IMG/VR virus record: IMGVR_UViG_3300032218_002851
Span: 1 to 64,000 of that record
Source: a virus
Lineage: Duplodnaviria; Caudoviricetes
DNA: 64,000 nucleotides
Direction: 5' to 3' (one strand)
Shown: positions 19,351 through 44,126 of the stretch, in pieces
How the letters are laid out: every line of letters starts with the position of its first letter
Numbering within the stretch: the stretch's first letter is position 1
Position numbers and translations under genes: made by a program
The notes under the pieces: generated by a model
What the model saw: the letters and a program-made list of their open reading frames with translations, nothing else
Told to the model about the DNA's origin: nothing
The model's database searches: none

Positions 19351-19899
19351 TTATTCCAAGTTAGCGTGCCACTCTCTGAGATTGTCTTCTTCTAATGCAA
19401 GTTTTTCCATAAGATTAAGAATCACAGTTTCAAAGAATATCATAGTAGCAAGTTCAAATCTACTACCAAGAGGAAGATTCTTGTTCGTAGATAAAACTCT
19501 ACTAGATGGACCAATCTGAAAAGTTTTATCAGCCATCTTGCCAAGAGTAGACTCAGGATTTCCAGTGACGAGTAACACTTGAGATTCCTCAGATTTTGCC
19601 TTCTCAGCAAAAGCAATCAACTGCTTGGTTTCACCTGAACCAGAAACAAGAAGAAGTGAATCGCGAATTTCTATAGGTTTGGTAGTAGTTTCTCCAACTA
19701 CTTGAACACTCAAGCCGCAATGCAGCAATCGCATTGCAAACATATTAGCGACCATTTTTGATCTACCTGCGCCTGCCACAAAGATTCGAGGAACCATATA
19801 TGGCGCATAGAGTGCATCGATAAAATCGGTACACATTTCTTTTTCCGTGTAGAGCAGTTCGTCTCTTAGAATATCAAGAACATCAGAGTAATTAGCCAC
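19351..19899 (-). CDS. hxlB: 6-phospho-3-hexuloisomerase (Phi, SIS domain)
   Basis: RIFVAGAGRS, VVGETTT, VSGSGET, PLGSRFE and HANLE motifs; GTG start at 19899 overlaps hps stop. Confidence 0.93.
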   Translation of the reverse strand: MANYSDVLDILRDELLYTEKEMCTDFIDALYAPYMVPRIFVAGAGRSKMVANMFAMRLLHCGLSVQVVGETTTKPIEIRDSLLLVSGSGETKQLIAFAEKAKSEESQVLLVTGNPESTLGKMADKTFQIGPSSRVLSTNKNLPLGSRFELATMIFFETVILNLMEKLALEEDNLREWHANLE

Positions 19900-20530
19900 G
19901 TTCAACAGCTTCCCGAATTTCAGCAGCAGCGCGAACAGGGTCAGCAGCACCATAGATTGCAGCACCTACTACAACGATATCAGCACCAGCATCGATAACT
20001 TGGCGAACGGTATCCTTGTTAATGCCGCCAGCCACTGAGACCATTACTGGTAGGCTTAGACCAACGATTGCCTTGAGGTCCTCGAATGGCGTCTGTCCTC
20101 TCGCCTGAGCATCTAGTCCAGTATGTACGCCGATGATGTGGGCACCTAACTCGGCAACCTGGAAAGCTTTTTCCATCTTATTTGGAACGCTAATCAAGTC
20201 AACCTGTGCCATACCACCTTCTCTAAGCTTTGCTGCTTCAATAACACCAGAGATGGTTCCCACGTCCGCAGCACCAAGTACTGTAACGATATCTGCGCCA
20301 ACTTTAAAGAAAGGCGACGCTTCGTACAATCCGGCGTCCATTGTCTTGAGGTCCGCTAGAACCTTACGTGTAATAGAATACGCTCGTACAGTTTCGACAA
20401 CGCGAATTCCGTTAACCTTAACGCATGGAGTACCGAGTTCGATGATGTCTACATAGGGTGAGATAAGTTGAGCTAGACGAATTGTGTGTTCATAGTCTAG
20501 AGTATCGAGTGCTGCTTGAATTAATGCCAT
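19892..20530 (-). CDS. hxlA: 3-hexulose-6-phosphate synthase (Hps)
   Basis: IQAALD, IIELGTP, ADLKTMDAG.YEA, GVHTGLDAQARGQTPF, VAGGI and VVGAAIYG motifs; methanotroph-like type. Confidence 0.95.
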   Translation of the reverse strand: MALIQAALDTLDYEHTIRLAQLISPYVDIIELGTPCVKVNGIRVVETVRAYSITRKVLADLKTMDAGLYEASPFFKVGADIVTVLGAADVGTISGVIEAAKLREGGMAQVDLISVPNKMEKAFQVAELGAHIIGVHTGLDAQARGQTPFEDLKAIVGLSLPVMVSVAGGINKDTVRQVIDAGADIVVVGAAIYGAADPVRAAAEIREAVERG

Positions 20531-20683
20531 TCTTGTTTCTCCTTTTTATTAAAATTGCAGATAAAGAGATGCCGTGGTTCAAACAACCTATTGGGAATTT
20601 ATAACTATTCCTAAGTTGGCAGACATCTCTCGCTCAACGTAGCTAACTATTTAGTACTTAATTAAACAGTTCATAATTAGTGC

Positions 20684-20792
20684 CTGTCTCGGTGAAGATG
20701 CCTGCTGTCCAACATACAGGACAGGAATTCAGCCCCTCAGGTCAGTATAAATGACCGTACTTGGTACCCATCATCTAACTTCACCGAGACAG
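20684..20792. ncRNA. Candidate structured RNA closed by a 14-bp stem
   Basis: ctgtctcggtgaag / cttcaccgagacag enclosing three small hairpins. Confidence 0.4.
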
Positions 20793-20803
20793 TGCGCTGA
20801 TAT

Positions 20804-21205
20804 TTAGGCTTCTTCAGCCTCTTCGTCAGCATCCTCGACCATCACCTTGGCCACTGCACGAGCCTTCAGGTCTTCCATGTTAGGCTTGCTCTTAGCCTTG
20901 GTCTTGGTCTTGGAAGGTTTCGCAGCCTTAGCCTTGACAAGTGTTTCTCCGTTGTACTTCTCGTCAGCGTTGTCAATCGCCTCACGATACAGCGGGTTCT
21001 GATATAGTTCAGAGGTCTTGAGGAACTCAACCAGCTCAGGCTTTGACATCGGACGCGGAAGTTCCATCAAAGTTGCTTCCGAGTACTTCTTGAGTAGGCG
21101 CTTGATACGGCCCATATCGTTGGCGAATCGCACCTTGAAGGTCTTTGCAGGCACGCTCTGGTCCGTAGAAGAAACACCAGCAACAGTAAAGATTTTGTCA
21201 GTCAT
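20804..21205 (-). CDS. Conserved T4-like hypothetical protein, Lys/Ala-rich tail
   Basis: FTVAGVS...KVRFAND..R.K.L...ELP.PM.K. Confidence 0.65.
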   Translation of the reverse strand: MTDKIFTVAGVSSTDQSVPAKTFKVRFANDMGRIKRLLKKYSEATLMELPRPMSKPELVEFLKTSELYQNPLYREAIDNADEKYNGETLVKAKAAKPSKTKTKAKSKPNMEDLKARAVAKVMVEDADEEAEEA

Positions 21206-21257
21206 AACACACTCCAATATTTTTTTAATTTATTCGCGCCAGCATCAGCGCGAAGAA

Positions 21258-21287
21258 AGTATAGCACAGCGGATGCTCGCTTGTCAA
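21258..21287 (-). promoter_or_regulatory. sigma70-type early promoter
   Basis: TTGACA-18-TATACT. Confidence 0.7.
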
Positions 21288-21295
21288 GCGGTATT

Positions 21296-21496: not shown

Positions 21497-21532
21497 ATAA
21501 TTTTCCTCTTTTTAGTTTCTAGTGAGATGTTT

Positions 21533-21811: not shown

Positions 21812-21840
21812 GCTAATGTCTCCTTTTTTTCAACCTTGAG

Positions 21841-22053: not shown

Positions 22054-22080
22054 GCTGTTCTCCTAACAAAATATGTGCCT

Positions 22081-22109
22081 ATATTAACAGGTTGAACCAG
22101 CGTTGTCAA
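22081..22109 (-). promoter_or_regulatory. sigma70-type early promoter
   Basis: aacggTTGACA-17-TAATAT. Confidence 0.75.
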
Positions 22110-22470: not shown

Positions 22471-22480
22471 GATATTTTCC

Positions 22481-23737: not shown

Positions 23738-26266
23738 CTAAAGATCTTGATTTTGCAATAATTTTTTAATAATTTGTTGAACAAAAGGATCCGACAACGG
23801 CAGTATTTTATGCTCAGCAGTGACTACACCAGTGATGTAGTACAATCGCCATAAAGTATCGCTTGAAATCTTTTGAAAAAACAAAGAATTATAATCTTGA
23901 TATGAGGTTGGTATCAAACGATAACTGAAAAAATTAGAATATTCAGGATAGTCTTTTTTAATTTTGCTGTCAGCAGAATCTGGAATAGAAATAATGTTAA
24001 GTCTTTCATGACGCATAAAATCACGCCGAAAAATAAAATTTTGGTCATAATTTAATTGACTCAGTAAATGTTCTAGCACAAGTCTTTTATTTTTAGAGTT
24101 GCAATATACGGTGAAATCAACCACCGGCATACCTTTTTCTCGAATTCCAGCAACTATCTTTTGCTTGTCAGTTAGTACACTGCCAAAAATTTTCGGATTG
24201 TTTTGGCCTACAAGCTGCACAAGTTTCTTGAGATATTCTTCTCGATAAGCATTTGGATCACTGGCTATTTGAATCGCACGAACAAATCTGCCGACTGAGT
24301 TTTTGACATCCTGTTGGCTTTCAAGATAATTGTTGCCAGCATGTCTGAAACTTATATATGTTTTATTTTTTTCTTTGCTTATACTTGCATAATGAGCATT
24401 AGTGATTGATTTGACTATTTTTTGCAAATACTTTTCGGCTTGTGCAATATTTTTTATTTTGGGTGTTTGTGCGTTTTTCAAATCTTGCAGCACACTGCGT
24501 GCAAATTCATTGTTTTCTCGATCAAACATTTGTAATATATAGCGGTCTCCGCTGAACAAAACCAGCTTCATTAAATCAATAGATTCTGGAATACTAACAT
24601 TAATATGTAAGCCGGTGCTTTCATTGGTATAAAGGTCTAACTCGTCAGCCAGATCATAAAACTTATCCAACCATGACATAGCAGTGTCAGGATCTACTGG
24701 TGGACTGACAATTTCCATGGTAGCGCCATAATGATCGCCAGGAGCATTCTCTAAACTTCCGTCAGGTTCTATATAAAAATCAGTGATATTTTTTTTACGT
24801 TGTTTGGTAGTACTGAACACATGCACAGGTCTGTTGTATACCCCAGACAGCTTGTTTTTGACTAACTGTTGTGCTAACAAACTTGAGTCTCTGGTAGCAA
24901 TAATCAATGAATCAATGCCTAAGACCCTATCTACATTTTTGGCATCATAATAAAAATAATCATCAAAATTATCATAAAATCTAGCAGGTAATTTAAGCAA
25001 TTTAGCAATATCAGTAGGATCTGAAAAAGTATTAGCTAAAATACTCAAGTCGTTAAAGTACTTGTAACCTCGGACACCAAGTACATGATCACGAAAGATG
25101 TTTCTATAATATCTCAATACGTATTGAGCGCGTGCCAACAATTTTGAATCTTTGACCAAGGTTTTCGGAGCTGATTCAATATGCTTTCTAGCTTCGCGTG
25201 CATAAGCAGCATCTAGTTTTGGTTCAATTGATATAATTTTCTTTTTGATGTTATCTACATACTTTTCGTATTTTACAAGTTTTGCTTCAAATGCTTCACT
25301 GGCAGTTTTGGAGTCAGGCGATTTACCGATCAAATGAAAAACGCGATCCCATAATTCTGGTGTTAACCGATCTGCGAGGTTATAATAGACATGATGCATG
25401 GACATTATCTGACCTATGCTTGAATCAGAATTTTTAACAAGATCATGAATCATATAGCCGTACATACAAACTTCAAATTCGAATCCTACCAACACTCCTT
25501 GTTCAGTGCCTTGTTGTATGCTTGTTTGAAAAGTCCTGGGACTCATTCTCACTTCATGTATTTCATTTTCATCAAGACTAAGTTCAGCATCTTGTTGTTT
25601 GCGACGAGCAACAACTAGTTTTTCTATATAGCCCTCGTTGCGTAAAATCTTGAAGGTTAGATTTTCTGGTCCAAATTCACCAGTGGCAGCCAAACCATTT
25701 TTGCGCATGCGTTTGATTTTGTTGAACAGATTGCCCATTTCTTCCTGATCATTGGATGCAATGGACTTTTGTATACGCATGATCAGATCTTGTACTTTGT
25801 GATTTACATCTTGATCATTTATTTTTGGCGGATTATATTCTGGTTTTTTAATCCAACGATTATCGAGAATGCTGTAAATTCCACCGCTGACCGGGGGTGT
25901 TTCCACATCTTCCACATACAGTTCAGCTTCGTGGCCACGAATCTTGATATCGTGTTCATCGTTCCAGATTTTTTTCTTGGCAGTATAGAATGCTTCTGCT
26001 AGGTCGTCACATTGCAAATCACTGTAACGTGTGACTACATGAATATCAAAGTCTGAATAATCAGTGTAGTTATAGTTAGCCATGCTGCCAGTCAGCACAA
26101 TATCCAATGTTTCAAAATCAGGAATATCCAGTGATTCACGAAATACAGTGGCAATCTGCATGAGTTTTTTGCGAACTTCAGGTCGTAGTTTTTCGCCCTG
26201 CCATGCCAAAGGACAAAGTTTACTGTGGTATTCTACATTGCTTTTGGTGTAATCATCAAGTCTCAT
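23738..26266 (-). CDS. Nucleotidyltransferase fused to amidoligase-like domain
   Basis: N-terminal GSMANY..YSDFDIH (Pol-beta NTase); C-terminal GFEFE, EPDGSL, MEIVSPP, STGLHINVS and FRHAG. Confidence 0.75.
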   Translation of the reverse strand: MRLDDYTKSNVEYHSKLCPLAWQGEKLRPEVRKKLMQIATVFRESLDIPDFETLDIVLTGSMANYNYTDYSDFDIHVVTRYSDLQCDDLAEAFYTAKKKIWNDEHDIKIRGHEAELYVEDVETPPVSGGIYSILDNRWIKKPEYNPPKINDQDVNHKVQDLIMRIQKSIASNDQEEMGNLFNKIKRMRKNGLAATGEFGPENLTFKILRNEGYIEKLVVARRKQQDAELSLDENEIHEVRMSPRTFQTSIQQGTEQGVLVGFEFEVCMYGYMIHDLVKNSDSSIGQIMSMHHVYYNLADRLTPELWDRVFHLIGKSPDSKTASEAFEAKLVKYEKYVDNIKKKIISIEPKLDAAYAREARKHIESAPKTLVKDSKLLARAQYVLRYYRNIFRDHVLGVRGYKYFNDLSILANTFSDPTDIAKLLKLPARFYDNFDDYFYYDAKNVDRVLGIDSLIIATRDSSLLAQQLVKNKLSGVYNRPVHVFSTTKQRKKNITDFYIEPDGSLENAPGDHYGATMEIVSPPVDPDTAMSWLDKFYDLADELDLYTNESTGLHINVSIPESIDLMKLVLFSGDRYILQMFDRENNEFARSVLQDLKNAQTPKIKNIAQAEKYLQKIVKSITNAHYASISKEKNKTYISFRHAGNNYLESQQDVKNSVGRFVRAIQIASDPNAYREEYLKKLVQLVGQNNPKIFGSVLTDKQKIVAGIREKGMPVVDFTVYCNSKNKRLVLEHLLSQLNYDQNFIFRRDFMRHERLNIISIPDSADSKIKKDYPEYSNFFSYRLIPTSYQDYNSLFFQKISSDTLWRLYYITGVVTAEHKILPLSDPFVQQIIKKLLQNQDL

Positions 26267-26648
26267 TGCGTAAATCTTTTAGTAAATCAGGATGTGCATG
26301 ATCGAAATGACGCATAACAATACCAGCCACCGAATTTGCTTCGTTTTCTTGAGGACTGCCAGTGTGACCAGCTTTTGGACCAAGTTCGCCGCGCAATTCT
26401 TGTCGCCAATGTACCAATTCATGTGCTAGAGTGCGAAGTACATCAATCACATGGCGATTGCCTGCTACAACTCTGATATTACCATCATGATACTTGCCGA
26501 AAGTTCCGTCTAGGCCAGTGTCTAGAAAAATAATTTTAGGCAGTTCTTTTATTCCCAGTCTTTTTTGGGCAAAAGGTATAAATCTCACAAGAATTTTTTC
26601 TAATTTGGGGTGGCTTACACCTTCGATGCTGAAATCATTTGCTCTCAT
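26256..26648 (-). CDS. HExxH zinc metallopeptidase-like protein
   Basis: VLRTLAHELVHWRQ...GSPQENEANSVAG. Confidence 0.7.
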   Translation of the reverse strand: MRANDFSIEGVSHPKLEKILVRFIPFAQKRLGIKELPKIIFLDTGLDGTFGKYHDGNIRVVAGNRHVIDVLRTLAHELVHWRQELRGELGPKAGHTGSPQENEANSVAGIVMRHFDHAHPDLLKDLRNET

Positions 26649-26658
26649 AATGATATAT

Positions 26659-28536
26659 TTAGTTTCGCTTACGCATTATATCAATTGCTTTGGCTGTTCG
26701 TTTGGTCATTTGTTCACGATCAATAAAATCTGTTATATCCATTGTTCGCAAGTCATAGTCTGTTTGTTTTAGATTGTTGTCGTTAATAAATATTAATGCC
26801 TCAATGCGAGCCTCAGGCCAAATTGTACCGGGAAAATACGCAACAGCTTGCGTTGGGTTTGTCTTTTTAACTAATTTATATCCCTCTGATGCTTTTCCAG
26901 CAGTTTTTTCTCTGACCACTTCACTTGCCCAAAGCTTTTTAAATGTGCTGATGTTTATTTTTTTAGAAAAGTATTGGCTGATCAGCGTGGACATATAGTT
27001 AGAAGGCACATCTGGCTGCAAAATTTTATACAGCTTTTTTGCATATTCTTCTTGGGCAGCATTTGGATCATTGGCAATTGTCATGGCTTTGGCAACTCTT
27101 AGTAACACAAAATTCAGTTTTTCTACATCATCAAAGTAGTTTGGAGCAGCACTAGCAGTGGGCTGGCCGTCTTTGGCTGCATCATACGCATGACCCACGC
27201 TGCGTATTTCTACATAGTCCTTTCGTGGATTAATACTGAAGTATTTGCCAAAATCAAACTGTATCAAAGCTTGTTGTATACTTTGGTAATACCCATCGCG
27301 CAATGCTGAAATAGCCTGGTTTATGTTTTCAGTATTTTGAGATGCGAGTTTCTCAACAAATGATTGTGTAAAGTTATTGCTTAGTCGTCTAAAAAGAGAG
27401 AGTATTTGTTTGTCGCCGAGAAATACAGCGAATTTCACCAAGTCTATATTCATCACAGGCAAGCTGACGTTTATGTGAAATCCTGTGCTGGGATTGCTTT
27501 TGCCGCCGCATTCTTTCACCCAATCAAAAAATTTAGGTAATATAGCAAGACAACTTTGCAGTGACATAGGTGGAGAAACAATCTCACACGGCAGTTCATT
27601 TGGCGCATAATCCTTGATACTGGAATCTGGTTCTATTATCCATGTATCTTTGATTCTTGGTATGCCGTGATAAGCACTACTGAAATCTACTTTTACACCT
27701 AGATATTCGCGCAAAGAATCAGCTATTGTGGCAGCATTGGCGTTGGAAAAACCTAATGCAGAGTCAAGATTGCCACTCAGAGTTAAATATGGCCAAGGTA
27801 GATCTAATATATTGGCTGCACTCTTCATATCCACAATTCTTTTTGTCTCTAAAAAATGCGTTAAAAATTCGGGTGCATCATACCGTTCATAATAGGATTC
27901 TGTAAATTTTTTCTTTACTCTTTGATATAATTCATTTTTCGTAGAAATAGCATCTTCAATTACATTTTCTAGTTCAACCAATGCATCCCGGCGTGCTTGA
28001 AGATATCTGTTAGCCAAGTCGTTTTGTTCAACATTTAGATTGTCGCTGCCATCGTTCTTCCAATTCTGATAAGATTGGTGCGCAAGTTTAATTTGTTTAT
28101 CACTGAGCCCTTGAGATTTTAGTAGGTCGTGGGTTGTCTTTTCTCGTAATCCGTTGTTTCTAAGAACCTCGTCAAACACTTTTCGATATTCATGAAAGGC
28201 AAAATCTGATTCTATTTTATCCACGAACCAAGATTTATATAACAGCTTTAACGCATCGACTTTTTTTTGTACCAGTGAGCGTGGCGTGCGGACAGAACCG
28301 GTGGCTGATGAGAAAAAATCAATGATCTTATTCCAGCTTACGCCAGCCTCTGGATTTAATAATTTATTTTTAGAATAGTCTGGACTTTCTTTTTTTTGTA
28401 ATCCGGTTTGAGTTAATATCAACTCTGCTTCAAATCCAACTTTAATACCTTCTGTTGCCTTGCCCTGAGCAAATTTTTCCAAAGTCTTTGGCGTAATTTT
28501 GATTTCACTCAGAGGTTTGATTTCACCATATCTCAT
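26659..28536 (-). CDS. Amidoligase-like (COOH-NH2 ligase) protein
   Basis: GFEAE, EPDSSI, EIVSPP, STGFHINVS, KYFSIN and VEIRS. Confidence 0.75.
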   Translation of the reverse strand: MRYGEIKPLSEIKITPKTLEKFAQGKATEGIKVGFEAELILTQTGLQKKESPDYSKNKLLNPEAGVSWNKIIDFFSSATGSVRTPRSLVQKKVDALKLLYKSWFVDKIESDFAFHEYRKVFDEVLRNNGLREKTTHDLLKSQGLSDKQIKLAHQSYQNWKNDGSDNLNVEQNDLANRYLQARRDALVELENVIEDAISTKNELYQRVKKKFTESYYERYDAPEFLTHFLETKRIVDMKSAANILDLPWPYLTLSGNLDSALGFSNANAATIADSLREYLGVKVDFSSAYHGIPRIKDTWIIEPDSSIKDYAPNELPCEIVSPPMSLQSCLAILPKFFDWVKECGGKSNPSTGFHINVSLPVMNIDLVKFAVFLGDKQILSLFRRLSNNFTQSFVEKLASQNTENINQAISALRDGYYQSIQQALIQFDFGKYFSINPRKDYVEIRSVGHAYDAAKDGQPTASAAPNYFDDVEKLNFVLLRVAKAMTIANDPNAAQEEYAKKLYKILQPDVPSNYMSTLISQYFSKKINISTFKKLWASEVVREKTAGKASEGYKLVKKTNPTQAVAYFPGTIWPEARIEALIFINDNNLKQTDYDLRTMDITDFIDREQMTKRTAKAIDIMRKRN

Positions 28537-30737
28537 CGGATTTGCCTGATATCCAGATCATCGAATGTCATGTTAGCAAACATATCTGCTGGATAAGGTT
28601 TTTTGATTGCTGCTTGCCAAGCATCGTGTTCATTAGCAGCATCTACTTCTAGATAACGAGTATCGTGATTAGTTCCTGCATAGCGTTTGAATCCCACCAT
28701 ATAGCGTTTTAGTTTGGTGGATGATTTTGGTTCGTCAGTCTTTTTTGAACTGCTGATTTTTTGGGCTAGTAGTTGGCGCTGAGTAGCAAGATCACTGATT
28801 TCACTGCCTTCTGCCTTGTTGATTTCATAACCATATTTTAAAAAGTCTCGTAGTGATCCATTGCCGTATTTGTTGAATGCTGCTCGCAATGCCTCCCACC
28901 CAATCATATCAGGTAAAAACATCACCTGCTCTTGATTTATATCAGATATAACCCAATCATGTTTTTTAAAGTCTGATGTATCTTGTTGTTCTTTGGGCTT
29001 GACAGATGCAAGTACCTTGTCGGCCCATTCTTTTTTAAGAGTGTTTGAATTGATCAACCCTACCATGTATTTGCAGAATAATCCAATGATATCATCCATT
29101 TCGGTTGGATCTACTGAAACTCTGGATCCTTTGGTTCTTACATCAGAAGAAGCAAATTTTGTCTGATGATATTTCGTAAAGCCTTTTGCGGTAGACTCAG
29201 GATCAGTGTCTTTTGGATTCCAATATTTCAGAATGGTCGGTGATAATACTTTATACAACTTCTTGAAGTATTCATTTCGTTCTGCTTCAGGATTTGCAGC
29301 AATATACATTGCCTGAGCATAGCGCATTAAAGTGTTTTTCAATTTGTCAATATCATCAAAATAATCTTTTCCGCCGGCGCTGCGAAATTCTACATAATTT
29401 GCTTTAGGATTAATACTGAAATATTTGCCAAATCCTTGGCCGCCAGCGGAACTCTGATGTATCATAAAATGTGATGCATCGGTTATTCCCTTGCGCAAAT
29501 CTTCAAATGCACGTATCAGCATTGCTGTGTCTCTGGCTGCATTGGCCGGGCTATGATTGGACCTTATATTTTTGATTGTGGTTTTTATTCTTTTTAAAAA
29601 ACTTTCTGCATATGTACTATTTTGTCTTTTAAACTGCTTTAGCACATATTCATCACCCAGAAATAATGCTAATTTAACGGTATCAAGATTTGCAGTAGTC
29701 TGACTAGACAAGCTGACACCCATGTGAAATCCTGTGCTTTTGTTTGAATAAGCATTATTATCTTTTGCCCATGCAAAAAATTCAGGCAACCAATACTCTA
29801 CTACTTCTTTCAACGGCTTGGGTGGACTTATAATTTCAATCGGTAAATCTCTCATATCATCAACGATAATACTGCTATCTGCTTCAAATACCCAGTTATT
29901 CCCGTCTCTTGTGGCAGTATGATAGCCTGAACTGACTTTAACGGTTTCCTCACGGAATGTGCGTCTAAAATCATCTGCCAAGTCTCTAGCAGAAGCTTCA
30001 ACATATTCGCCCTGTTCATCACCGACGGCTATAAAAGGCCATTCAAGATCGTATGCATTAGCTACTTCCATCATTGAATCATATGTCTGTTGTACCCAGT
30101 AATCTTCATCGAGATCAAACTCGTCGGTAAATTCATCTCTTGCTTGACTCCAGTATACTCCTTGGGATCTTATCTCATCTTCTACTTTTTCTTCAAACTC
30201 TGCGTTAGCAGCGTCATATGCTTCATCATAAGTTTCTCGGTCCACGCTGTCACCACGCCGTAAGATGCGTTCAACATCTTCTTCTGAATATTTGTTGCGT
30301 AGTTTATCAGCAACTTCGATTTCTTCGTCCCATGATTCTTGGCGCATTAGTTCAGTAACTAGTTCAAGTTCAGATTCTGCAAACGATTCATCAATTTGTT
30401 TATCAACCCAGACACGATATTCCTCTCGCATTTCATATTCTAATCTTTGTCTGCCAGTCCGCGCTAATCCAAGATTAAAATCATCATTTGAGAAGAAACG
30501 TAGTACGTCCGGGATGCTGACTGGTCTTTCATCCATTTCATAATCTGGCTCCCCTTGTATGTTTGAATCTTGCACACCCATTCCTTCAAATACCAATTCA
30601 GCTTCAAAGCCAGCCATCATGCCTTCAGCAGCAGGACTGTTCATGAACTTGGTAAGCGCGGTAGGATCCATGCGTACTTCATCTAAAATTTGCTCAGATT
30701 CTTTTTTTGGTGCTAACTTGAAGTCTTTAAATTTCAT
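28533..30737 (-). CDS. Amidoligase-like (COOH-NH2 ligase) protein with acidic insert
   Basis: GFEAE, EADSSI, EIISPP, STGFHMGVS, KYFSIN and VEFRSAGG. Confidence 0.75.
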   Translation of the reverse strand: MKFKDFKLAPKKESEQILDEVRMDPTALTKFMNSPAAEGMMAGFEAELVFEGMGVQDSNIQGEPDYEMDERPVSIPDVLRFFSNDDFNLGLARTGRQRLEYEMREEYRVWVDKQIDESFAESELELVTELMRQESWDEEIEVADKLRNKYSEEDVERILRRGDSVDRETYDEAYDAANAEFEEKVEDEIRSQGVYWSQARDEFTDEFDLDEDYWVQQTYDSMMEVANAYDLEWPFIAVGDEQGEYVEASARDLADDFRRTFREETVKVSSGYHTATRDGNNWVFEADSSIIVDDMRDLPIEIISPPKPLKEVVEYWLPEFFAWAKDNNAYSNKSTGFHMGVSLSSQTTANLDTVKLALFLGDEYVLKQFKRQNSTYAESFLKRIKTTIKNIRSNHSPANAARDTAMLIRAFEDLRKGITDASHFMIHQSSAGGQGFGKYFSINPKANYVEFRSAGGKDYFDDIDKLKNTLMRYAQAMYIAANPEAERNEYFKKLYKVLSPTILKYWNPKDTDPESTAKGFTKYHQTKFASSDVRTKGSRVSVDPTEMDDIIGLFCKYMVGLINSNTLKKEWADKVLASVKPKEQQDTSDFKKHDWVISDINQEQVMFLPDMIGWEALRAAFNKYGNGSLRDFLKYGYEINKAEGSEISDLATQRQLLAQKISSSKKTDEPKSSTKLKRYMVGFKRYAGTNHDTRYLEVDAANEHDAWQAAIKKPYPADMFANMTFDDLDIRQIR

Positions 30738-34576: not shown

Positions 34577-35524
34577 TTACTTAACCCATTCTTGTGCTTT
34601 TTGAGCTACTTTAGCGGGTAATGGAACATATCCATCTTTGACTACAATTTCTTGTCCAGTCTTTGATAGCACCATCTTCATAAATTCCTTTTCAAGAGGA
34701 GCAAGAGATTCATTAGGATGCTTGTTCACATAAACATACAAGTATCGAGCTAAAGGATACTTACCGGAAATAGCATTTTCTGGTGTTGGTTCAATAGCCT
34801 CTCCACCGTCTTTACGAGAAAGAGGAAGAGCTTTAACGCTTGCAGTCTTATAACCAATACCAGAGTACCCAATACCGTTCAATGATTTAGTAACACCTTG
34901 TACCACAGAAGCAGATCCGGGCTGCTCATTTACGTTACTCTTATAGTCGCCTTTACAAAGAGCAAACTCTTTAAAGTAACCGTATGTGCCTGATACTGAA
35001 TTACGACCAAACATCTGAATGCGCTGATTGCCAAGATCACCAGTTACTCCTAGACCGCTCCACTGGCTAATGTCGTTATCGTGACCGCAAGCTCTTGTTG
35101 CAGAATAGATTGCATCAACTTGTGGGATAGAGATAGATGTGATCGGATTATCCTTATGAACAAAGACGGCTAGAGCATCAATTGCTACTGGAATAGCCGT
35201 TGGCTTATATCCATACTTGCCTTCAAATGCCTCTACTTCTTCCGACTTCATCATACGACTCATCGGACCTAGTGTTGCCGTGCCTTCAGTTAGAGCAGGA
35301 GGAGCCGTAGCTGAACCTGCTGCTTGAATCTGTACTGTGACATTAGGATAGAGACGTTTAAATTCTTCTGCCCAAAGTGACATAAGATTTGCAAGAGTAT
35401 CAGACCCAACTGATGATAGCGTACCCGATACACCTTCTACTTTTTCGTAGGGAACAATCTCCGCATCGATTGCTGATGCGGAGAAAGAGATTGTGGCAAG
35501 AATACTAAGTAATAGTTTTTTCAT
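34577..35524 (-). CDS. pstS: Phosphate ABC transporter substrate-binding protein
   Basis: Signal peptide; [46 protein letters not shown] and YPLARYLY. Confidence 0.95.
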
Positions 35525-35533: not shown

Positions 35534-36940
35534 TTACCAGAATACTGCCATACGAGTAACGATTGCTGATGGTTCAGAACCAGCATACTTACCACCTTCT
35601 ACATCAAGAACCTTGACATAGTTAGTCTGGAAGCGAACGTTCTGTACTGGAAACCAATTAACGCCAACTGATAGATTCTTTTCACGACCACCAGTGATTA
35701 AATCGCTATTCAAGTCTGTATCCGAGAATCGACCAACAAGTTCCCAAGCACCCCATCCACCTTTACCAACAAGAGACTGTGGCTTGACTGAATCAAAGAT
35801 ACCTTCTTGAAACTTATATGGACGAGATTCACCAGTTAGGAACCAGCCAGCAGAGACATAATAACCTTGGAAGTAAGGATTGCCAGCAGCAGTATTCACT
35901 TGCATACCAAGATATTCACTTTGTAGAGTAAATGGTCCCTGTACTACAACAAACTCACCGTTCCAGCGAAGTAGATGATCAGCACCAAATTTACCAGTAT
36001 CAATTAGGCGAGTAGATGTTTCATTGACTTCCATTCTTTCGCGAAGCTGAACGTTGTTACCATCCTTAAATCCACGATAAGAGACACCAGAACCTAGATG
36101 AAGTACATGACCACCATCATGCCAAGGTGCCCAAGTTACACGTCCAGTAGCAGCATAACCATCATTGAAGTCACGAGGATTGGTTTCATCTGCACCCTTA
36201 TCGGAAATGGTTTCTTGCTGGCGAGTACCAAAGATACCCCCGCTATAGGTAAAGTGATCTGTCCAAGTAGTTAGCTTGATACCGGGATTACGTTCACCAA
36301 CATAGTTAGCAAGAGCATTGACTGGCATTGCACGTTCTACAAATAGACCATTGTTTGAGCTATTGATTAGATCAAAGCTAAATGGTTCGTGTGACTGACC
36401 AATCTTGACACTTGTAGGATGTGCTACTGCATCAATACCGGGAAGCTTACCAACATATTCAACATAGGCATCCTTTAGACCTTCAATGCCTTTGTCTGAT
36501 TCACGGAAATCGTATTCAGCTTTGAACTTCCAATTAGTATTCAGTGTACCAGCAACACCAAGTCTTAGACGACGAAACTGACCTGCATCTGCCTGATTGA
36601 ATCCACCGTCTTTATCAAAGAAGGCAGTATCATAATGAATACGACCAATTGTGCGCCAAGCAAAATCTCCGGGCTTGTCTTTTAGTTCAAACTTACCGGG
36701 AGTAAGACCGGGAGTACCTAGCTGAGCAAGAGACTGTTCGACCTTTTTACCAACTTCTGCGCCAGCAGCATTGTTAGTTTCTTCATCAGCTTGAGCGGCA
36801 GACTTAAGTTCCTCATACGATTTGGCGTCAAGGGTTCCTCTAGTCTTTAGAGTATCCAGTAGCTGGATCATCGCATCGTTTGCAGCAAATGCTGGCGCGC
36901 TTAATAGGCACGACAGTAATACTATTGTGGATTTTCTCAT
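35534..36940 (-). CDS. oprP: Phosphate-selective porin OprO/OprP family
   Basis: Signal peptide; GRIHYD, RRLRLG..G, FVERA, WFLTGESR.Y, WELVGRFS.DL and GVNW; C-terminal aromatic W. Confidence 0.9.
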   Translation of the reverse strand: MRKSTIVLLSCLLSAPAFAANDAMIQLLDTLKTRGTLDAKSYEELKSAAQADEETNNAAGAEVGKKVEQSLAQLGTPGLTPGKFELKDKPGDFAWRTIGRIHYDTAFFDKDGGFNQADAGQFRRLRLGVAGTLNTNWKFKAEYDFRESDKGIEGLKDAYVEYVGKLPGIDAVAHPTSVKIGQSHEPFSFDLINSSNNGLFVERAMPVNALANYVGERNPGIKLTTWTDHFTYSGGIFGTRQQETISDKGADETNPRDFNDGYAATGRVTWAPWHDGGHVLHLGSGVSYRGFKDGNNVQLRERMEVNETSTRLIDTGKFGADHLLRWNGEFVVVQGPFTLQSEYLGMQVNTAAGNPYFQGYYVSAGWFLTGESRPYKFQEGIFDSVKPQSLVGKGGWGAWELVGRFSDTDLNSDLITGGREKNLSVGVNWFPVQNVRFQTNYVKVLDVEGGKYAGSEPSAIVTRMAVFW

Positions 36941-36979: not shown

Positions 36980-37019
36980 TTAATAATACTTGTACAGTGT
37001 TATTAAAATAGTGTGACAG
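36980..37019 (-). promoter_or_regulatory. Candidate Pho box upstream of oprP-pstS
   Basis: Minus strand CTGTCAC-ACTA-TTTTAAT-AACA-CTGTACA; half-sites on an 11/22-bp pitch, middle one degenerate. Confidence 0.45.
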
Positions 37020-37031
37020 CGGTCGCTTAGA

Positions 37032-40783: not shown

Positions 40784-41065
40784 TTACTTGCGCATAGCCT
40801 TTTCAAACATCGAATCTAGACGACTCTTTTGTTCAGCGCAGCAACCCTGAGCAGCATCGCCAGCAGCCTGGGCAGACGTAGCAGACTCCAGTGCCCTTCG
40901 GGCTAGCTTGTCAGTTTCGTTAACCTTGCTTGTTACTACGTCTAACTTGCCACCTAGCAATTCTACCTTGCTGCTAAGGACAGTAACGTCCTTTTGAGTA
41001 GCATAGCTACAACCACTGAGCGTAATAACACCTGTCAACACAGCGATACTAAACATCTTATTCAT
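40784..41065 (-). CDS. Lpp/OprI-like alanine-zipper outer-membrane lipoprotein
   Basis: Lipobox LSGC; Ala-rich heptads; ends CC..Q..RLD.MFEKAMRK. Confidence 0.8.
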   Translation of the reverse strand: MNKMFSIAVLTGVITLSGCSYATQKDVTVLSSKVELLGGKLDVVTSKVNETDKLARRALESATSAQAAGDAAQGCCAEQKSRLDSMFEKAMRK

Positions 41066-41120: not shown

Positions 41121-41327
41121 TCAAATATTTTGGTCATCATAAGAGTCAAAAAGAACGCTTGGATCTTGTAGCCCGATCAATGATCCGCCTGGACCTTTGC
41201 GAAGAATACCTTTTTCTAGCCCGTGTTGTTTGATATTTTTCCATTCTTCTTCTAGAAGGTTGGTGAAATCTTCTTCGGAACCTAAAAATTCTTCAGGCCA
41301 TGGTTTGTTCTTTATTTTATTTTTCAT
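41121..41327 (-). CDS. Small hypothetical protein
   Basis: ORF track. Confidence 0.45.
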   Translation of the reverse strand: MKNKIKNKPWPEEFLGSEEDFTNLLEEEWKNIKQHGLEKGILRKGPGGSLIGLQDPSVLFDSYDDQNI

Positions 41328-42324
41328 TTGCTACACACTCCGCGTGTTCAATAAATTGTCGCGCTGAATACCGCCAAGTCCAGCGTTCAGCAGTATACCT
41401 AACTCGTCGTCTATCTATATTAGCGCATTGGTCTAAGGCTGTTTGCAAGTCCGTGTTTATCCATCCGTTTATTCCGTTTTCAATTACTTCCAGCGGCCCT
41501 GGTTCTGGATATGCAGCTACTGGAGTGCCAGAAGCAATGGCTTCTAGCAGCACAATCCCAAACGTATCAGATTTACTGGGAAACACAAATGCATCAGCAT
41601 TGGCATACCATTTAGCCAATGCTGCACCTTCTTGATGACCCGGGAAAATAACATCTGGATATTTTCGCTTTAACGAAGCGAGATATGGGCCATCACCTAC
41701 CAAAACTTTTTGGGAATGATTCAATCGACAAAAATCATCCAAGCCTTTTTCCTTGCTAGCCCTACTCACGCACAAAATATAGCCACCAGTTGTTTGGTCT
41801 CTTTTATCCAAGGAAAATAACTTTCCATCCACACCTCTAGTCCATATAGAAGTGTTGTACATTCCGTGCTGGTGCAAACACTGTGCTAAACCTACAGTAG
41901 GACAAAGAATCGCTTGGCTATTTCGATGAAACCAACGAAAGTAAGGATATGTCAAGTGTGTCGGTATTCCCCAACGACGCTTAATAAGATCAGGAAACAG
42001 TGTATGAAAACCTGTGGTAAAAGGTATGGTGTTGCGCTTACAAAATCGCCGAGTCATGAGTCCGATAGGACCTTCGGTAGCTATGTGTATGTTCGTGTCG
42101 CTATCAACCCTTGATGAAAGTTCATTGGTTACTGCGGATAAATTACAAACATATTCGATTTCAGGATATGCTTTTAATATTCTACGTTTGAAAGCCGGCA
42201 GATACGGATGAATCACATCACAAGTCACACCTAACTCTGAAAAATAAGGCAAAATATTTTGATATGAGCGAATCACGCCATTTACTTGGGGAATCCAGGC
42301 ATCAGTAGCTATCAATATTTTCAT
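41317..42324 (-). CDS. agt: GT4 glycosyltransferase, Agt-like (glycolipid synthase)
   Basis: MKILIATDAWIPQVNGV, HIATEGPIG, WTRGVD and FPSKSDTFGIVLLEA.ASGTPVAAYP. Confidence 0.8.
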   Translation of the reverse strand: MKILIATDAWIPQVNGVIRSYQNILPYFSELGVTCDVIHPYLPAFKRRILKAYPEIEYVCNLSAVTNELSSRVDSDTNIHIATEGPIGLMTRRFCKRNTIPFTTGFHTLFPDLIKRRWGIPTHLTYPYFRWFHRNSQAILCPTVGLAQCLHQHGMYNTSIWTRGVDGKLFSLDKRDQTTGGYILCVSRASKEKGLDDFCRLNHSQKVLVGDGPYLASLKRKYPDVIFPGHQEGAALAKWYANADAFVFPSKSDTFGIVLLEAIASGTPVAAYPEPGPLEVIENGINGWINTDLQTALDQCANIDRRRVRYTAERWTWRYSARQFIEHAECVANEK

Positions 42325-43070
42325 GAACTCATGCTACTCCATTCGATAATACGCCAGTTGCCATTAAAATCTTCAACCAGTGCTGTGCAACTTTCCACAA
42401 AATCGCCGTCGTTCATGTATTCAACGCCATCAATCTGTTTGATTTCTGCATGGTGAATGTGTCCACAAATAATACCGTCATAACCTTTGCGACGACAATA
42501 CTCAGCCATGTTTTTCTCATAGCTTACAATATGACCTACTGCAGTTTTTACAGCCAACTTCAAATACTTGCTTAGACTCCAATAGCCAAATCCAAATTTG
42601 CGACGAATCCAGTTGAACTGCGTGTTTAGTCCTAAAATCATTTCATAAAGGTAATCTCCTAAGTAACTAATCCAACGATGATAATTCAAGATGCCATCAA
42701 ACATGTCGCCATGAATCAACAAATATCGTCGGCCATTAAGGGCAGTATATTCATAACGATTGTGGATCTTGATCAATCCAAAACTTAAGTCTAGTCCTAG
42801 AGTGGCTCGTAAAAATTCATCATGATTTCCTACGATATAATGAACTTTGGTTCCTTTTTTAGCGTGACTTAGAATCTTGCGAACTACATTGGTATGAGTT
42901 TGATCCCATCGCCATTTCTTCTGCTGTATCTTCCATCCGTCGATGATATCTCCGATCAAGAATAGATTTTCTGCTTGATTGTGTTTGAGAAAATCTAAAA
43001 GCAATAAGGACTTGCAATCCTTACTGCCTAAGTGCAGATCGCTGATACAAATAGTCTTATATCTGTTCAT
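42321..43070 (-). CDS. plcP: PlcP-like phospholipase C (LpxH-like metallophosphoesterase)
   Basis: ISDLHLG, GDIIDGW, GNHDE, IHGD.FD, GFGYWSLSKYLK, CGHIHH and YMNDGD.VESCTALVE; coupled to GT4 gene. Confidence 0.8.
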   Translation of the reverse strand: MNRYKTICISDLHLGSKDCKSLLLLDFLKHNQAENLFLIGDIIDGWKIQQKKWRWDQTHTNVVRKILSHAKKGTKVHYIVGNHDEFLRATLGLDLSFGLIKIHNRYEYTALNGRRYLLIHGDMFDGILNYHRWISYLGDYLYEMILGLNTQFNWIRRKFGFGYWSLSKYLKLAVKTAVGHIVSYEKNMAEYCRRKGYDGIICGHIHHAEIKQIDGVEYMNDGDFVESCTALVEDFNGNWRIIEWSSMSS

Positions 43071-43094
43071 GATATTATTGACGAACTCTATAAG

Positions 43095-43331
43095 TCATTC
43101 TGTATCTTCCTCTATTACAACGTAGTGTTTGCCAATATGAATAAAACCAGCATAGGTTACTGCATTTTTTAGTGCCTGTGCTTCTCCACAAGCCTCAGCT
43201 ATGCTAAGAAAAATCATAATCAGCACACCTAATGCTAAGCCAAGTAACACACTGTGCTTATCAAATTTAAACATTTCTCTGTCTGCTTTAGCTAATATTG
43301 TTATGTTCAGTGTTGCTATTTGATTCTTCAC
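43095..43331 (-). CDS. Small membrane protein
   Basis: Central TM helix. Confidence 0.45.
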   Translation of the reverse strand: MKNQIATLNITILAKADREMFKFDKHSVLLGLALGVLIMIFLSIAEACGEAQALKNAVTYAGFIHIGKHYVVIEEDTE

Positions 43332-43479
43332 TTTCGTCTACAAGATCAAATACCCAATTGATCGGAATATTTAAATTTTTCGCAATATCGCGAATTTTAA
43401 CACCAGCTTGATATGCGCACACAACTTCGATATATAAATCAGACATATTGCTCATAGTTTTGATTCTCGTTAGGTTCAA
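43288..43479 (-). CDS. Small HTH-like protein
   Basis: GVKIRDIAKNLNIPINWV. Confidence 0.5.
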   Translation of the reverse strand: MNLTRIKTMSNMSDLYIEVVCAYQAGVKIRDIAKNLNIPINWVFDLVDESEESNSNTEHNNIS

Positions 43480-43672
43480 ACATAGTCGGAATTGAAGGCA
43501 TTGTCATCCAATGCGTAATATCTAATGGTTTGTTATATTGATTATAAAAGGCAAAAGGCGTAACTCCCTTTACATCTCGGTATTGGAACCAAGCGATTTC
43601 AATAAATTCTCCATTGAACACCAAAAAATAACCGTTGAAGGTAGGTAGTCGATCTCTTACCTTAATCCACAT
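43439..43672 (-). CDS. DUF551-like phage protein
   Basis: MWIKVRDRLP...ITHWMTMP. Confidence 0.7.
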   Translation of the reverse strand: MWIKVRDRLPTFNGYFLVFNGEFIEIAWFQYRDVKGVTPFAFYNQYNKPLDITHWMTMPSIPTMFEPNENQNYEQYV

Positions 43673-43996
43673 CGAAGTTTTCCATGGGTCTAATCCTTTT
43701 TTTGTTCAAGACCTATTTAGTCAATCGATGATAATATCAGTAATCTTTCGATCACGAAATATATAATAACTGTTAACTAGATCATGATTGATTCAAATAC
43801 ATTCATTGCCAGGTCAAATCTCATAGTCTTCGATGTTGTTTTTACGCAGATCTTCAATGACCTTCAAGATATTAAATTCATTGTAATCTTGCATTTTCCT
43901 AACTCCAGTTCGTTGACTTCAAGTGTATATTACATCCATAACCTAGATTTGTAAATTACAACGGTAAAAGATGTATAGAATGTCCTGGTCTAGAAT

Positions 43997-44025
43997 GAAA
44001 AAGAGGCAGACTAATGTCTGCCTCT
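43997..44025 (-). terminator. Rho-independent terminator downstream of pqqA
   Basis: agaggcagac-taat-gtctgcctct 10-bp stem plus U-tract on minus strand. Confidence 0.8.
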
Positions 44026-44051
44026 CATTTATCGAAAGTTTGTGCTAAATC

Positions 44052-44126
44052 TCACCGAAATGAGACATAAGCGGTGATTTCGAAACCATTGCGAAGGTCT
44101 TGAAAAGAAGGTGTAGTCCACTGCAT
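44052..44126 (-). CDS. pqqA: PQQ precursor peptide PqqA (24 aa)
   Basis: Read manually: MQWTTPSFQDLRNGFEITAYVSFR; W..P.F.DLR.GFE(xxx)Y signature; RBS TAAGGAG. Confidence 0.9.
   Translation of the reverse strand: MQWTTPSFQDLRNGFEITAYVSFR

Follow-up and report, generated by a model that had tools for sequence, protein, structure and literature searches.

Several described phages carry copies of host metabolic genes comparable to those analyzed here. Among the cyanophage AMGs, talC, zwf, gnd and CP12 are host-enzyme copies that feed the pentose phosphate pathway and NADPH supply for dNTPs, and pstS serves phosphate uptake, with phoA also listed (Thompson et al., 2011, cited in PMC9875498; PMC10976474). 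T4-like Methylophilaceae phages from Lake Baikal (VP_139 and VP_266) encode pqqA and methanol dehydrogenase, a combination interpreted as enhancing the oxidation of methanol (Coutinho et al., 2020, PMC7678222), and the amoC-/pmoC-phages of freshwater lakes are large phages with one component of the key energy pathway of their host (bioRxiv 10.64898/2026.06.18.733297; PMC7674155). As a phage AMG pqqA is already known, as are pstS and oprP. In bacteria, PlcP-Agt lipid remodelling under phosphate starvation involves a metallophosphoesterase gene immediately upstream of a GT4 gene, and this pair is the commonest plcP context (Sebastian et al., 2016, PMC4796936).

Here, a window of 64,000 nucleotides (positions 1 to 64,000 of the 89.9-kb IMG/VR virus fragment IMGVR_UViG_3300032218_002851; CheckV completeness 25%) was analyzed. 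It probably covers roughly one fourth of a large T4-like myophage that has OM43 phage Melnitz and pelagiphage HTVC008M among its relatives. The explanation that we favor, with somewhat better than even confidence in it as a whole, is that of a T4-like phage carrying a C1 module for a RuMP host together with phosphate modules of separate history. The strategy is the same as in the cyanophages; however, whereas cyanophages address the Calvin cycle and pentose phosphate metabolism, the present phage would address RuMP C1 assimilation by means of HPS and PHI, and it additionally encodes a precursor peptide for a cofactor and a porin of the outer membrane. The relevant features are as follows.

2327-2872, minus strand: Fe/Mn superoxide dismutase (SOD), the only one of the record (PF02777, 77-79 bits; PF00081, 36 bits)
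18522-18931, minus strand: circularly permuted (two-piece) tmRNA directly after phi (ARAGORN, 18522-18912; Rfam RF01850, 102 bits against 84; RF04321, 122)
19351-19899, minus strand: phi, 6-phospho-3-hexuloisomerase (TIGR03127, 165 bits; cut-off 160)
19892-20530, minus strand: hps, 3-hexulose-6-phosphate synthase (TIGR03128, 226.6 bits; cut-off 200)
34577-35524, minus strand: pstS, periplasmic phosphate-binding protein (TIGR02136, 279.7 bits; cut-off 206.6)
35534-36940, minus strand: oprP, OprO/OprP-type phosphate-selective outer-membrane porin (PF07396, 223 bits; cut-off 20.9)
40784-41065, minus strand: OprI/Lpp-like outer-membrane lipoprotein, between the two phosphate cassettes (PF11839, 35.8 bits; cut-off 23.1)
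41317-42324, minus strand: GT4 glycosyltransferase, agt-like (PF00534, PF13692, PF13439)
42321-43070, minus strand: PlcP-like metallophosphoesterase (PF00149, 52 bits)
44001-44026, minus strand: strong hairpin terminator directly downstream of pqqA (11-bp stem with 6 G-C pairs, then a T run)
44052-44126, minus strand: pqqA, stand-alone 24-codon PQQ precursor peptide (PF08042, 31.7 bits; cut-off 21.1)
44253-44534, minus strand: small ORF upstream of pqqA, with homologues just upstream of pqqA in relatives

The identities proposed for hps, phi, pstS, oprP and pqqA in the first-pass annotation were confirmed, all five scoring above curated family cut-offs. The best solved-structure match of HPS was PDB 3ajx, itself an HPS (E 2e-44), and phi probably starts at a GTG overlapping the hps stop codon (GTGGCTAA), an arrangement in which phi may be translationally coupled to hps. 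For pqqA, an ATG start, an AAGGAG ribosome-binding site and the E-x-x-x-Y core are readable in the sequence, and a PqqA peptide-pattern search of the 90-kb record returned this site only (0 matches in 20 shuffles). Ratios of dN/dS between 0.10 and 0.25 (hps 0.10-0.16; phi 0.20-0.25; oprP 0.12 as compared to its relative L115) point to purifying selection on hps, phi and oprP.

The main new result is a phage-specific pqqA-hps-phi cassette, of which no published description was found. At 15 related phage loci, namely four IMG/VR loci and 11 of 11 metagenome loci of the phage clade, pqqA and hps-phi are joined as a single cassette in which the pqqA start lies 157-235 nt upstream of hps; pqqA was not found next to hps in 32 bacterial loci (15 of bacterial type and 17 from named methylotrophs). 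Most of these cassettes end with a permuted tmRNA, whose position after phi recurs in nine related loci. In the present phage hps-phi-tmRNA is intact and pqqA lies approximately 23.5 kb upstream with both phosphate cassettes inside the gap, apparently split away from hps-phi by accessory DNA. As had been described, the AMGs are dispersed as separate units between small ORFs of the phage; all lie on the minus strand. The independent acquisitions deduced from this dispersal hold for the C1 units as compared to the phosphate units, but not within the former, since pqqA and hps-phi seem to derive from a single ancestral cassette that was split later. The Baikal phages VP_139 and VP_266 resemble the present one as T4-like methylotroph phages with pqqA and RNR and share the same C1 virocell logic; however, they carry methanol dehydrogenase and hps/phi were not reported from them (PMC7678222), whereas the present 90 kb contain hps-phi and no methanol dehydrogenase, and in the relatives of the present phage hps-phi is joined to pqqA in one cassette.

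In the HPS tree, all 16 phage and phage-like sequences formed one clade (support 98/93), sister to HPS of Methylophilaceae, Methylococcales and Methylophaga, i.e., proteobacterial RuMP methylotrophs (60-63% identity), and pqqA in relatives such as L157 is identical to Methylophilaceae pqqA. The sister position of HPS and the joined pqqA agree with the RuMP-methylotroph reading of the C1 genes given previously, and the C1 theme of the phage is well supported. A proteobacterial methylotroph or methanotroph using the RuMP cycle is the likeliest host, with conflicting signals because the PstS subtype points to a Methylococcales-type order and the nearest isolated phage relative infects Methylophilaceae: PstS identity rose to 64-71% with sequences of the Methylococcales-type order but did not exceed 33% with those of Methylophilaceae. 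Moreover, the tmRNA belongs to the betaproteobacterial permuted family, of which the methylotroph genomes tested contained no member.

Melnitz, HTVC008M and Mosig are the closest isolated relatives (PMC9004378; GenBank MT647606), based on the conserved protein encoded at 50429-51526, which shows 41% identity to Melnitz and HTVC008M and has at least 587 IMG/VR relatives, among them complete genomes of 148-337 kb, the size range that complete members of this wider group reach. Hsp20 and RNR are common to this group and the present record, which also encodes DnaB, primase, tail genes and a 2OG-Fe(II) oxygenase. By contrast, none of pqqA, hps, phi and oprP was reported in the Melnitz paper (PMC9004378) or in the Mosig locus, and the tmRNA of Melnitz, although also two-piece, is of the alphaproteobacterial type. 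A tblastn search of GenBank phages returned no HPS or OprP belonging to these phage clades. A search for pmoC, as suggested earlier, detected neither this gene nor amoC or methanol dehydrogenase across the record's 90 kb.

The N-terminus of OprP resembles a Sec signal peptide with AFA at its end, and that of PstS is signal-peptide-like. The T4-like contig L324 has kept the oprP-pstS pair (92%). The closest relatives, L005 with hps (89%) and L115 with oprP (90%), both come from sample 3300032282, and the neighborhoods of both genes in the present phage are unlike those in these relatives. The nearest cellular OprP sequences (54-68%) are located on high-GC gammaproteobacterial contigs, and the one searchable whole genome of this group, G156, contains no HPS, which counts against the favored explanation. 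Among 201 genomes of the Methylococcales-type order no OprP was more than 41% identical, and among 201 Methylophilaceae none exceeded 34%. In the amoC-phages, oprP is present as well (bioRxiv 10.64898/2026.06.18.733297); there it groups with the gene of the host, whereas the present oprP is at most 41% identical to that of the sampled methylotrophs, and amoC/pmoC, characteristic of those phages, are lacking in the present record.

The PlcP-like gene and the GT4 gene overlap by 4 nt, and the motifs DxH, GD, GNHD, HGD and GHxH are visible in the PlcP-like protein. This protein is LpxH-related, but LpxH itself was rejected as its identity (51 bits in LpxH models with a cut-off of 134). The best NCBIfam matches of the GT4 protein were lipid/glycolipid glycosyltransferases, every one under cut-off. 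By family, catalytic motifs and synteny the pair fits the plcP-agt arrangement, and the earlier plcP-agt assignment is to this extent a putative one. As in bacteria (Sebastian et al., 2016), the metallophosphoesterase gene is located immediately upstream of the GT4 gene; the bacterial pair is found beside Pho-type genes in one bacterial genome, whereas the present pair is phage-encoded, and unlike plcP-agt-dagK of Burkholderia (bioRxiv 10.1101/2023.05.30.542800) it is accompanied by neither dagK nor a Pho box. PlcP-like homologues are common in phages and in bacteria are paired with a GT4 gene, as in Methylophaga; the HPS-bearing genome G005 contains pstS, an oprP-like gene, plcP and GT4 inside approximately 8 kb. 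The pair is also kept in the complete relatives G555 and G558, in L128 and in the P0284 contig. The SOD had correctly been recognized, with 4 of 4 metal ligands aligning with PDB 8avm, but it lies approximately 16.5 kb outside the span 19351-44126 to which it had been assigned. Both the plcP-GT4 pair and SOD occur widely across this phage group, also where hps is lacking; the phosphate genes, a separate and more ordinary module, are, like SOD, generic to these aquatic T4-like phages. In line with their differing spread among relatives and differing nearest cellular relatives, the C1 and phosphate units appear to have separate histories.

Starting from gene identities, conservation, cassette architecture and phylogeny, we infer the host, the fluxes, the expression timing and the C1-phosphate coupling as follows. 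Phage PqqA would replenish the precursor consumed in PQQ synthesis and thereby keep the PQQ-dependent methanol dehydrogenase of the host going once the host's own genes are no longer expressed. HPS and PHI of the phage would capture toxic formaldehyde on ribulose 5-phosphate to yield fructose 6-phosphate, and the sustained cyclic RuMP and pentose phosphate flux could supply NADPH and pentose phosphates for phage DNA. Secreted OprP and PstS may boost phosphate capture at the outer membrane and in the periplasm for the host PstCAB transporter, the PlcP-like esterase and its GT4 partner probably remove phospholipid phosphate head groups and then glycosylate diacylglycerol, and SOD may curb oxidative damage.

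The coupling of C1 and phosphate genes into one integrated programme is the inferential part of this scheme, and of the single selective theme suggested originally only the C1 part was retained: phosphate genes and SOD occur in relatives without C1 genes, and promoter, terminator and Pho-box scans for a shared regulatory signal remained at chance level. We regard it as improbable, albeit worth weighing, that the two sets are not integrated at all, the C1 cassette being a host-specific add-on and pstS, oprP, the PlcP-like/glycosyltransferase pair and SOD a generic low-phosphate/stress kit of aquatic T4-like myophages brought onto one contig by a shared hypervariable accessory region. Such a kit would explain why pstS of pelagiphage Mosig adjoins a plcP-like gene (50%), why G555 and G558 possess plcP-GT4 (G555 also SOD) without hps, oprP or pstS, and why genes for a PlcP-like protein, a GT2 glycosyltransferase and SOD are neighbors on a phage-like contig of 359 kb; the oprP of the amoC-phages of nitrifiers and the differing hps/oprP surroundings in the present phage, L005, L115 and L324 are in accordance with it. 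Contrarily, in L117-L119, which form a second branch of the group, pqqA and oprP-like genes co-occur, and the closest relatives keep hps and oprP in one and the same sample. This reading mostly overlaps with the favored one, from which it differs solely in integration.

A slightly stronger, but still unlikely, competitor is that HPS and PHI operate in reverse and convert fructose 6-phosphate to ribulose 5-phosphate and formaldehyde, as in many archaea. Pentose would thereby become available for PRPP, and perhaps also C1 units with which to make thymidylate or modified bases, in a host that may or may not be a methylotroph. The reverse role of archaeal HPS in pentose synthesis is described as established (Goenrich et al., 2005, as cited in PMC10904782), hps is found among nucleotide genes in relatives (RNR, ThyX, dCMP deaminase and AdoMet decarboxylase in L325 and the P0041 contig; RNR upstream of hps in L005 and L007), and some host-derived signals, i.e., the OprP lineage and the tmRNA, point toward non-methylotroph lineages. 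However, the joining of pqqA to hps-phi at the 15 phage loci is sensible only with formaldehyde from a PQQ-dependent dehydrogenase, phage HPS clusters with methylotroph rather than archaeal or heterotroph enzymes, and the reverse reaction would free toxic formaldehyde, for which no phage-encoded sink was seen. Far less probable is a role of the PlcP-like/GT4 pair in envelope remodelling (LPS/lipid A precursors, surface glycans), e.g., for superinfection block or receptor change, instead of the mining of membrane phosphorus. Databases label the family LpxH-like, and among solved structures LpxH is the nearest match, though a weak one (24 bits); most ESM Atlas members of the family are viral, the partner in one jumbo-phage contig is GT2 and not GT4, and the OprI-like lipoprotein gene is nearby; nevertheless, the LpxH equivalog models stay well under cut-off (51 versus 134 bits), the bacterial homologues occur in plcP-GT4 pairs (PMC4796936), and homologues adjoin pstS in Mosig and pstS with the oprP-like gene in G005.

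The N-terminus of the OprI/Lpp-like product reads as a lipoprotein signal ending in LSGC. Furthermore, tblastn matches of 38-41% to the small ORF at 44253-44534 are located immediately 5' of the pqqA-hps cassette in three relatives (L010, L339 and L341).

The carbon side of the gene set, which the first-pass annotation had read as a theme of C1 metabolism, is made up of pqqA, hps and phi, with a tmRNA gene beside the last of these:

18522-18931, minus strand: circularly permuted tmRNA of betaproteobacterial type (RF01850, 102.1 bits against 84; RF04321, 122.5 against 47)
19351-19899, minus strand: phi, adjoining hps (NCBIfam TIGR03127, RuMP_HxlB, 165 bits against a cut-off of 160, a narrow margin)
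19892-20530, minus strand: hps (NCBIfam TIGR03128, RuMP_HxlA, 226.6 bits against an equivalog cut-off of 200, profile positions 1-205)
44052-44126, minus strand: pqqA, a 24-codon ORF with a ribosome-binding site and a strong terminator (Pfam PF08042, 31.7 bits against 21.1)

The best PDB match of the HPS protein was 3ajx, an HPS, with KGPDC at half that score, and together with the profile score and the HPS tree described below this argues that hps encodes a 3-hexulose-6-phosphate synthase and not a KGPDC/OMPDC paralogue. The start of phi is likely a GTG overlapping the hps stop codon, since homology begins just past that stop; a longer phi ORF overlapping hps was discarded as an artefact of ORF listing, and a frameshifted hps-phi fusion was ruled out, as the genes show an ordinary 8-nt start/stop overlap and are separate in relatives, with 11-nt overlaps. 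In PqqA the cross-link pair Glu-x-x-x-Tyr is read as E-I-T-A-Y. Pfam scans of about 70 ORFs of the record, which represents about 25% of the genome, detected no pqqB-E, and PqqB-E acting on the phage PqqA would presumably be supplied by the host.

A search of 5.8 billion proteins with HPS returned unnamed metagenomic proteins at the top (65-95% identity), the first named cellular HPS proteins (Methylobacillus, Methylotenera, Methylococcaceae) appearing at about 63%. A genome scan placed Methylophaga, Methylobacillus, Novimethylophilus and Methylococcales at 56-63%, followed by Actinobacteria at 48%. In the maximum-likelihood HPS tree, 16 of 16 phage or phage-like sequences formed one clade (support 98/93), the sister group of which consisted of proteobacterial methylotrophs (Methylophilaceae, Methylococcales and Methylophaga), with support of 98/96 for the joint clade. 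This topology fits one ancient acquisition from a RuMP methylotroph and later dissemination between phages. Only six other IMG/VR contigs carry this HPS, phi lying downstream of hps in every one; the gene is absent from all five near-complete relatives in the phage group, and GenBank phages contain no HPS or OprP of these clades, the matches being bacterial fragments or hits at 27%. The differences in hps and phi between phages are mostly synonymous (dN/dS 0.10-0.25), i.e., the genes are under purifying selection.

The C1 theme is well supported by this sister relationship and, moreover, by the linkage of pqqA to hps-phi in relatives. The latter was found by scanning for a PqqA-like peptide pattern near hps, which gave no match in 20 shuffles of the 90-kb record. 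Within the phage clade, four IMG/VR contigs and 11 of 11 JGI metagenome loci have a pqqA on the strand of hps, its start 157-235 nt upstream of that gene; near hps it was found in none of the 15 bacterial-type loci from the same scan (12 with more than 400 nt of upstream flank) and in none of 17 named methylotroph loci. In the window, 23.5 kb separates pqqA, which lies upstream, from hps. The ORF at 44253-44534, upstream of the window's pqqA, is homologous to the ORF just 5' of pqqA in three related loci (L010, L339 and L341), and on this ground we infer that the cassette was split in the window, so that phi and pqqA, the end-points of the stretch 19351-44126 singled out in the first-pass annotation, would be two halves of one cassette. 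The independent acquisitions proposed there for all of its units are borne out between modules, the C1 and phosphate genes having different histories, and not for pqqA versus hps-phi.

ARAGORN also called the permuted tmRNA, with a tag ending in ALAA. A permuted tmRNA directly follows phi in the window and in nine related loci (including L333, L337, L341, L006, L007 and L010), and the tag peptides differ (…HYEMALAA, …FYGDYALAA, …YDMEYSLAA). The beta-type form was absent from two Methylophilaceae genomes, Methylophaga, the Methylococcales MAG and the bacterial genomes G005 and G156, and present in 3 of 151 sampled genomes of the Burkholderiales order, all three without HPS; it is therefore uninformative on the host. 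The tmRNA of Melnitz, a phage of OM43 (Methylophilales), is likewise foreign to its host (PMC9004378).

Tentatively, and with slightly less than even confidence, we propose that pqqA-hps-phi and the permuted tmRNA form an operon that was invented by phages and circulates in one clade of large, T4-like members infecting methylotrophs or methanotrophs. It would couple the supply of PQQ precursor for methanol oxidation directly to formaldehyde fixation and would be the first viral module on the assimilatory RuMP branch of methane and methanol cycling, joined here by a phage-borne phospholipid-to-glycolipid pair mining membrane phosphorus. The combination of pqqA and methanol dehydrogenase has been described in T4-like Methylophilaceae phages from Lake Baikal (PMC7678222), and the sole mention of viral hxlA and hxlB that we found is in a KEGG-based AMG list (PMC12370912); searches of the literature outside subscription journals turned up no phage hps-phi, pqqA-hps-phi cassette or phage plcP-agt pair. 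Until now the oxidation step (pmoC, methanol dehydrogenase, pqqA) has been the basis of viral influence on the turnover of methane and methanol; a conserved, selected and phage-specific cassette of pqqA and the two RuMP enzymes would extend this influence to formaldehyde assimilation and detoxification. The cassette is also a compact target for cloning and assay, and a pqqA no more than about 250 nt ahead of hps may serve as a simple marker for phages of RuMP methylotrophs in metagenomes.

The source record is a single IMG/VR virus entry of 89,857 bp, classed as linear, of which the window is the first 64 kb; CheckV estimates its completeness at 25%. The minus strand carries nearly all genes, and GC ranges from 36 to 48% along the whole length. 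Other phage genes on the record encode a class I ribonucleotide reductase, DnaB helicase, primase and tail proteins, and further genes encode Hsp20, a 2OG-Fe(II) oxygenase and a cell-wall hydrolase. No pmoC/amoC was found on the record or in seven relatives, the control genomes being themselves without that family. For the conserved protein encoded at 50429-51526, IMG/VR contains at least 587 relatives, including complete genomes of 148-337 kb, and its best matches in isolated phages are Melnitz and the Pelagibacter phage HTVC008M (41%), a kinship which places the phage in the T4-like aquatic myophage group. GenBank holds no near-identical phage. Among complete relatives the closest is G555 (337 kb, with terminal repeats and with ribonucleotide reductase and DnaB 69-72% identical), which carries the plcP-GT4 pair and SOD and lacks hps, phi, oprP and pstS; plcP-GT4 is present in the complete relative G558 too, and the modules are unequally spread among relatives. 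The genomes sampled included the unpublished G031 and G199, neither of which alone carries any claim.

The phosphate side includes a porin and binding-protein pair, with a lipoprotein gene between it and the second phosphate cassette:

adjoining pstS, minus strand: oprP (PF07396, 223 bits against 20.9, profile positions 5-344 of 370; Sec-type signal peptide)
adjoining oprP, minus strand: pstS (TIGR02136, 279.7 bits against 206.6; Sec-type signal-peptide-like N-terminus)
40784-41065, minus strand: OprI/Lpp-like outer-membrane lipoprotein (PF11839, lipobox-like N-terminus), between oprP-pstS and plcP-GT4

Judged by profile coverage and export signal, the oprP product is predicted to be an OprO/OprP-type phosphate-selective porin. 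While pstS is a classic AMG, oprP is known from amoC-phages (bioRxiv 10.64898/2026.06.18.733297). Relatives of OprP at 84-93% identity lie on phage-like contigs, and in one locus, L324, the oprP-pstS pair is kept beside genes for thymidylate synthase, dCMP deaminase and the gp45 and gp44 clamp proteins. Bacterial contigs with a GC of 57-68% carry the next group, at 54-68% identity; a whole genome from this group, G156 (GCA_964555355.1, 5.3 Mb), lacks HPS and beta-type tmRNA. Identity of OprP was at most 41% across 201 genomes of the order of the Methylococcales MAG and at most 34% across 201 Methylophilaceae genomes. PstS was 74% identical to that of G156, 64-71% in 31 of the 101 genomes taken from the Methylococcales-type order and at most 33% across 101 Methylophilaceae genomes, which favours a gammaproteobacterial gene pool. 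At 36985-37030 on the minus strand, 60-90 nt before the oprP start, CTGTCAC and CTGTACA are spaced by 22 nt, in register with the 11-nt repeat of the Pho box; the site is not kept in L324, and matches to the Pho-box consensus in the window were fewer than expected by chance.

The evidence speaks for a RuMP methylotroph as the probable host, because of the origin of HPS, the pqqA linkage, Methylophilaceae-identical pqqA in relatives, the kinship with Melnitz and a compatible GC. Host prediction by phylogeny, as suggested in the first-pass annotation, leads there through HPS, whereas OprP and tmRNA point elsewhere. A G156-like lineage was rejected as host, given its GC of 57-68% as compared to 40% for the phage and the lack of HPS in G156; the OprP and tmRNA signals probably reflect older or inter-phage transfers. 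The PqqA of the window is slightly nearer to the Methylococcales-type peptide (15/24 versus 12/23), and cassette-type copies do not discriminate between host families; the peptide was set aside as a host indicator, being too short to discriminate. Four IMG/VR relatives (L157, L163, L165 and L186, one of them with two copies) carry pqqA copies matching the PqqA most frequent in Methylophilaceae at 23/23 and 21/23 residues, a direct hint at the hosts of these relatives. Orphan pqqA copies are scattered in 61 of 61 sampled Methylophilaceae genomes, 1 to 12 in each, as against mostly one in the Methylococcales-type order, and the phage's stand-alone pqqA mirrors the Methylophilaceae habit.

The second phosphate cassette had been annotated as plcP-agt, PlcP being the phospholipase C of lipid remodelling (Zavaleta-Pastor 2010; Sebastian 2016), and this putative assignment fits the protein family, motifs and gene order. 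Identity to bacterial genes in plcP-like contexts, all of them uncharacterised, is only 46-48%. All of the motifs DxH, GD, GNHD, HGD and GHxH are present in the alignment of the metallophosphoesterase (PF00149), and its gene lies immediately upstream of the GT4 gene with a 4-nt overlap. Sebastian et al. (PMC4796936) found plcP next to an agt-type glycosyltransferase gene as the commonest context (type 2), and the plcP-GT4 pairs of the bacterial genomes G003 (Methylophaga) and G005 have the same arrangement as the phage pair. Identity as LpxH (UDP-2,3-diacylglucosamine diphosphatase) was rejected: NF003743 and TIGR01854 scored 51.4 bits against 134 and 38.5 against 190, both below cut-off, and LpxH structures matched at 24 bits over the N-terminal core only. 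The protein has thousands of homologues, its ESM Atlas neighbours are mainly viral, and the four nearest plcP contexts inspected (75-83% and 61% identity) are all phage-like; in the pelagiphage Mosig, pstS adjoins a plcP-like gene. Pairs of this kind are common in large aquatic phages, where they are annotated as LpxH, and if confirmed, membrane-lipid phosphorus would join the known viral routes of phosphate acquisition.

Several loci, two of those four contexts (L128 and L129) among them, bear on the surroundings of such pairs. L128 (ENA ERZ28577356 scaffold_113; GenBank NBP02424.1), a 64-kb contig deposited in a 'Proteobacteria bacterium' MAG, has plcP-GT4 at 75% and 59% and phage-like content (many small ORFs, a SAM lyase, a pectate-lyase-like tail spike), and is probably a misbinned phage. 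In L129 (JGI 3300042868), a jumbo-phage-like contig of 359 kb, genes for a plcP-like esterase, a GT2 glycosyltransferase and Fe-SOD stand in series, with a LysM-GH19 lysin and NifU/Fe-S assembly genes downstream. The chromosome of G005, an HPS-bearing 'Gammaproteobacteria bacterium' genome of 2.4 Mb and 35-37% GC, carries pstS, an oprP-like porin gene, plcP-like and GT4 genes within about 8 kb (1950827-1959070; L112, L102, L120, L124), a Pho-type island resembling the gene set of the phage.

Superoxide dismutase had been counted among the genes of 19351-44126; it does exist on the record, as an Fe/Mn type, and lies outside that stretch:

2327-2872, minus strand: Fe/Mn SOD, the only SOD on the record (PF00081, 35.9 bits; PF02777, 77.4 bits)

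Its metal ligands His, His, Asp and His align with PDB 8avm, and it has a shortened hairpin domain. In 19-44 kb no SOD was found, either by motif scans or by Pfam scans covering all ORFs from about 85 aa upwards. On the record as a whole neither PF00080 nor PF09055 had a match, the latter a weak negative, as its controls were also silent.

The proposed roles of the genes are as follows: supply of PqqA could keep methanol dehydrogenase going, HPS and PHI would trap formaldehyde and feed the pentose phosphate pathway and NADPH production, OprP with PstS and PlcP with the glycosyltransferase would increase phosphate supply, and SOD would limit damage. The proposal that they constitute one integrated programme is conjectural: promoter (sigma-70 and late), terminator and Pho-box scans were at chance, or below it, and the phosphate genes are generic to the phage group.

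Two further groups of genes were noted:

3980-4801, minus strand: second metallophosphoesterase
4749-5405, minus strand: 218-aa ORF
23738-30737, minus strand: three clustered large ORFs of 842, 625 and 734 aa, two amidoligase-like (PF12224) and one with a weak nucleotidyltransferase match

The first two have homologues in viral contigs L116-L119 and may be a further phosphate-related unit: in all four contigs an oprP-like gene (29%) is located about 0.9 kb from the homologue of the 218-aa ORF (42-44%), the esterase matches L116 only (36%), and L117-L119 also have pqqA. The three large ORFs are kept at 29-43% identity in G555.
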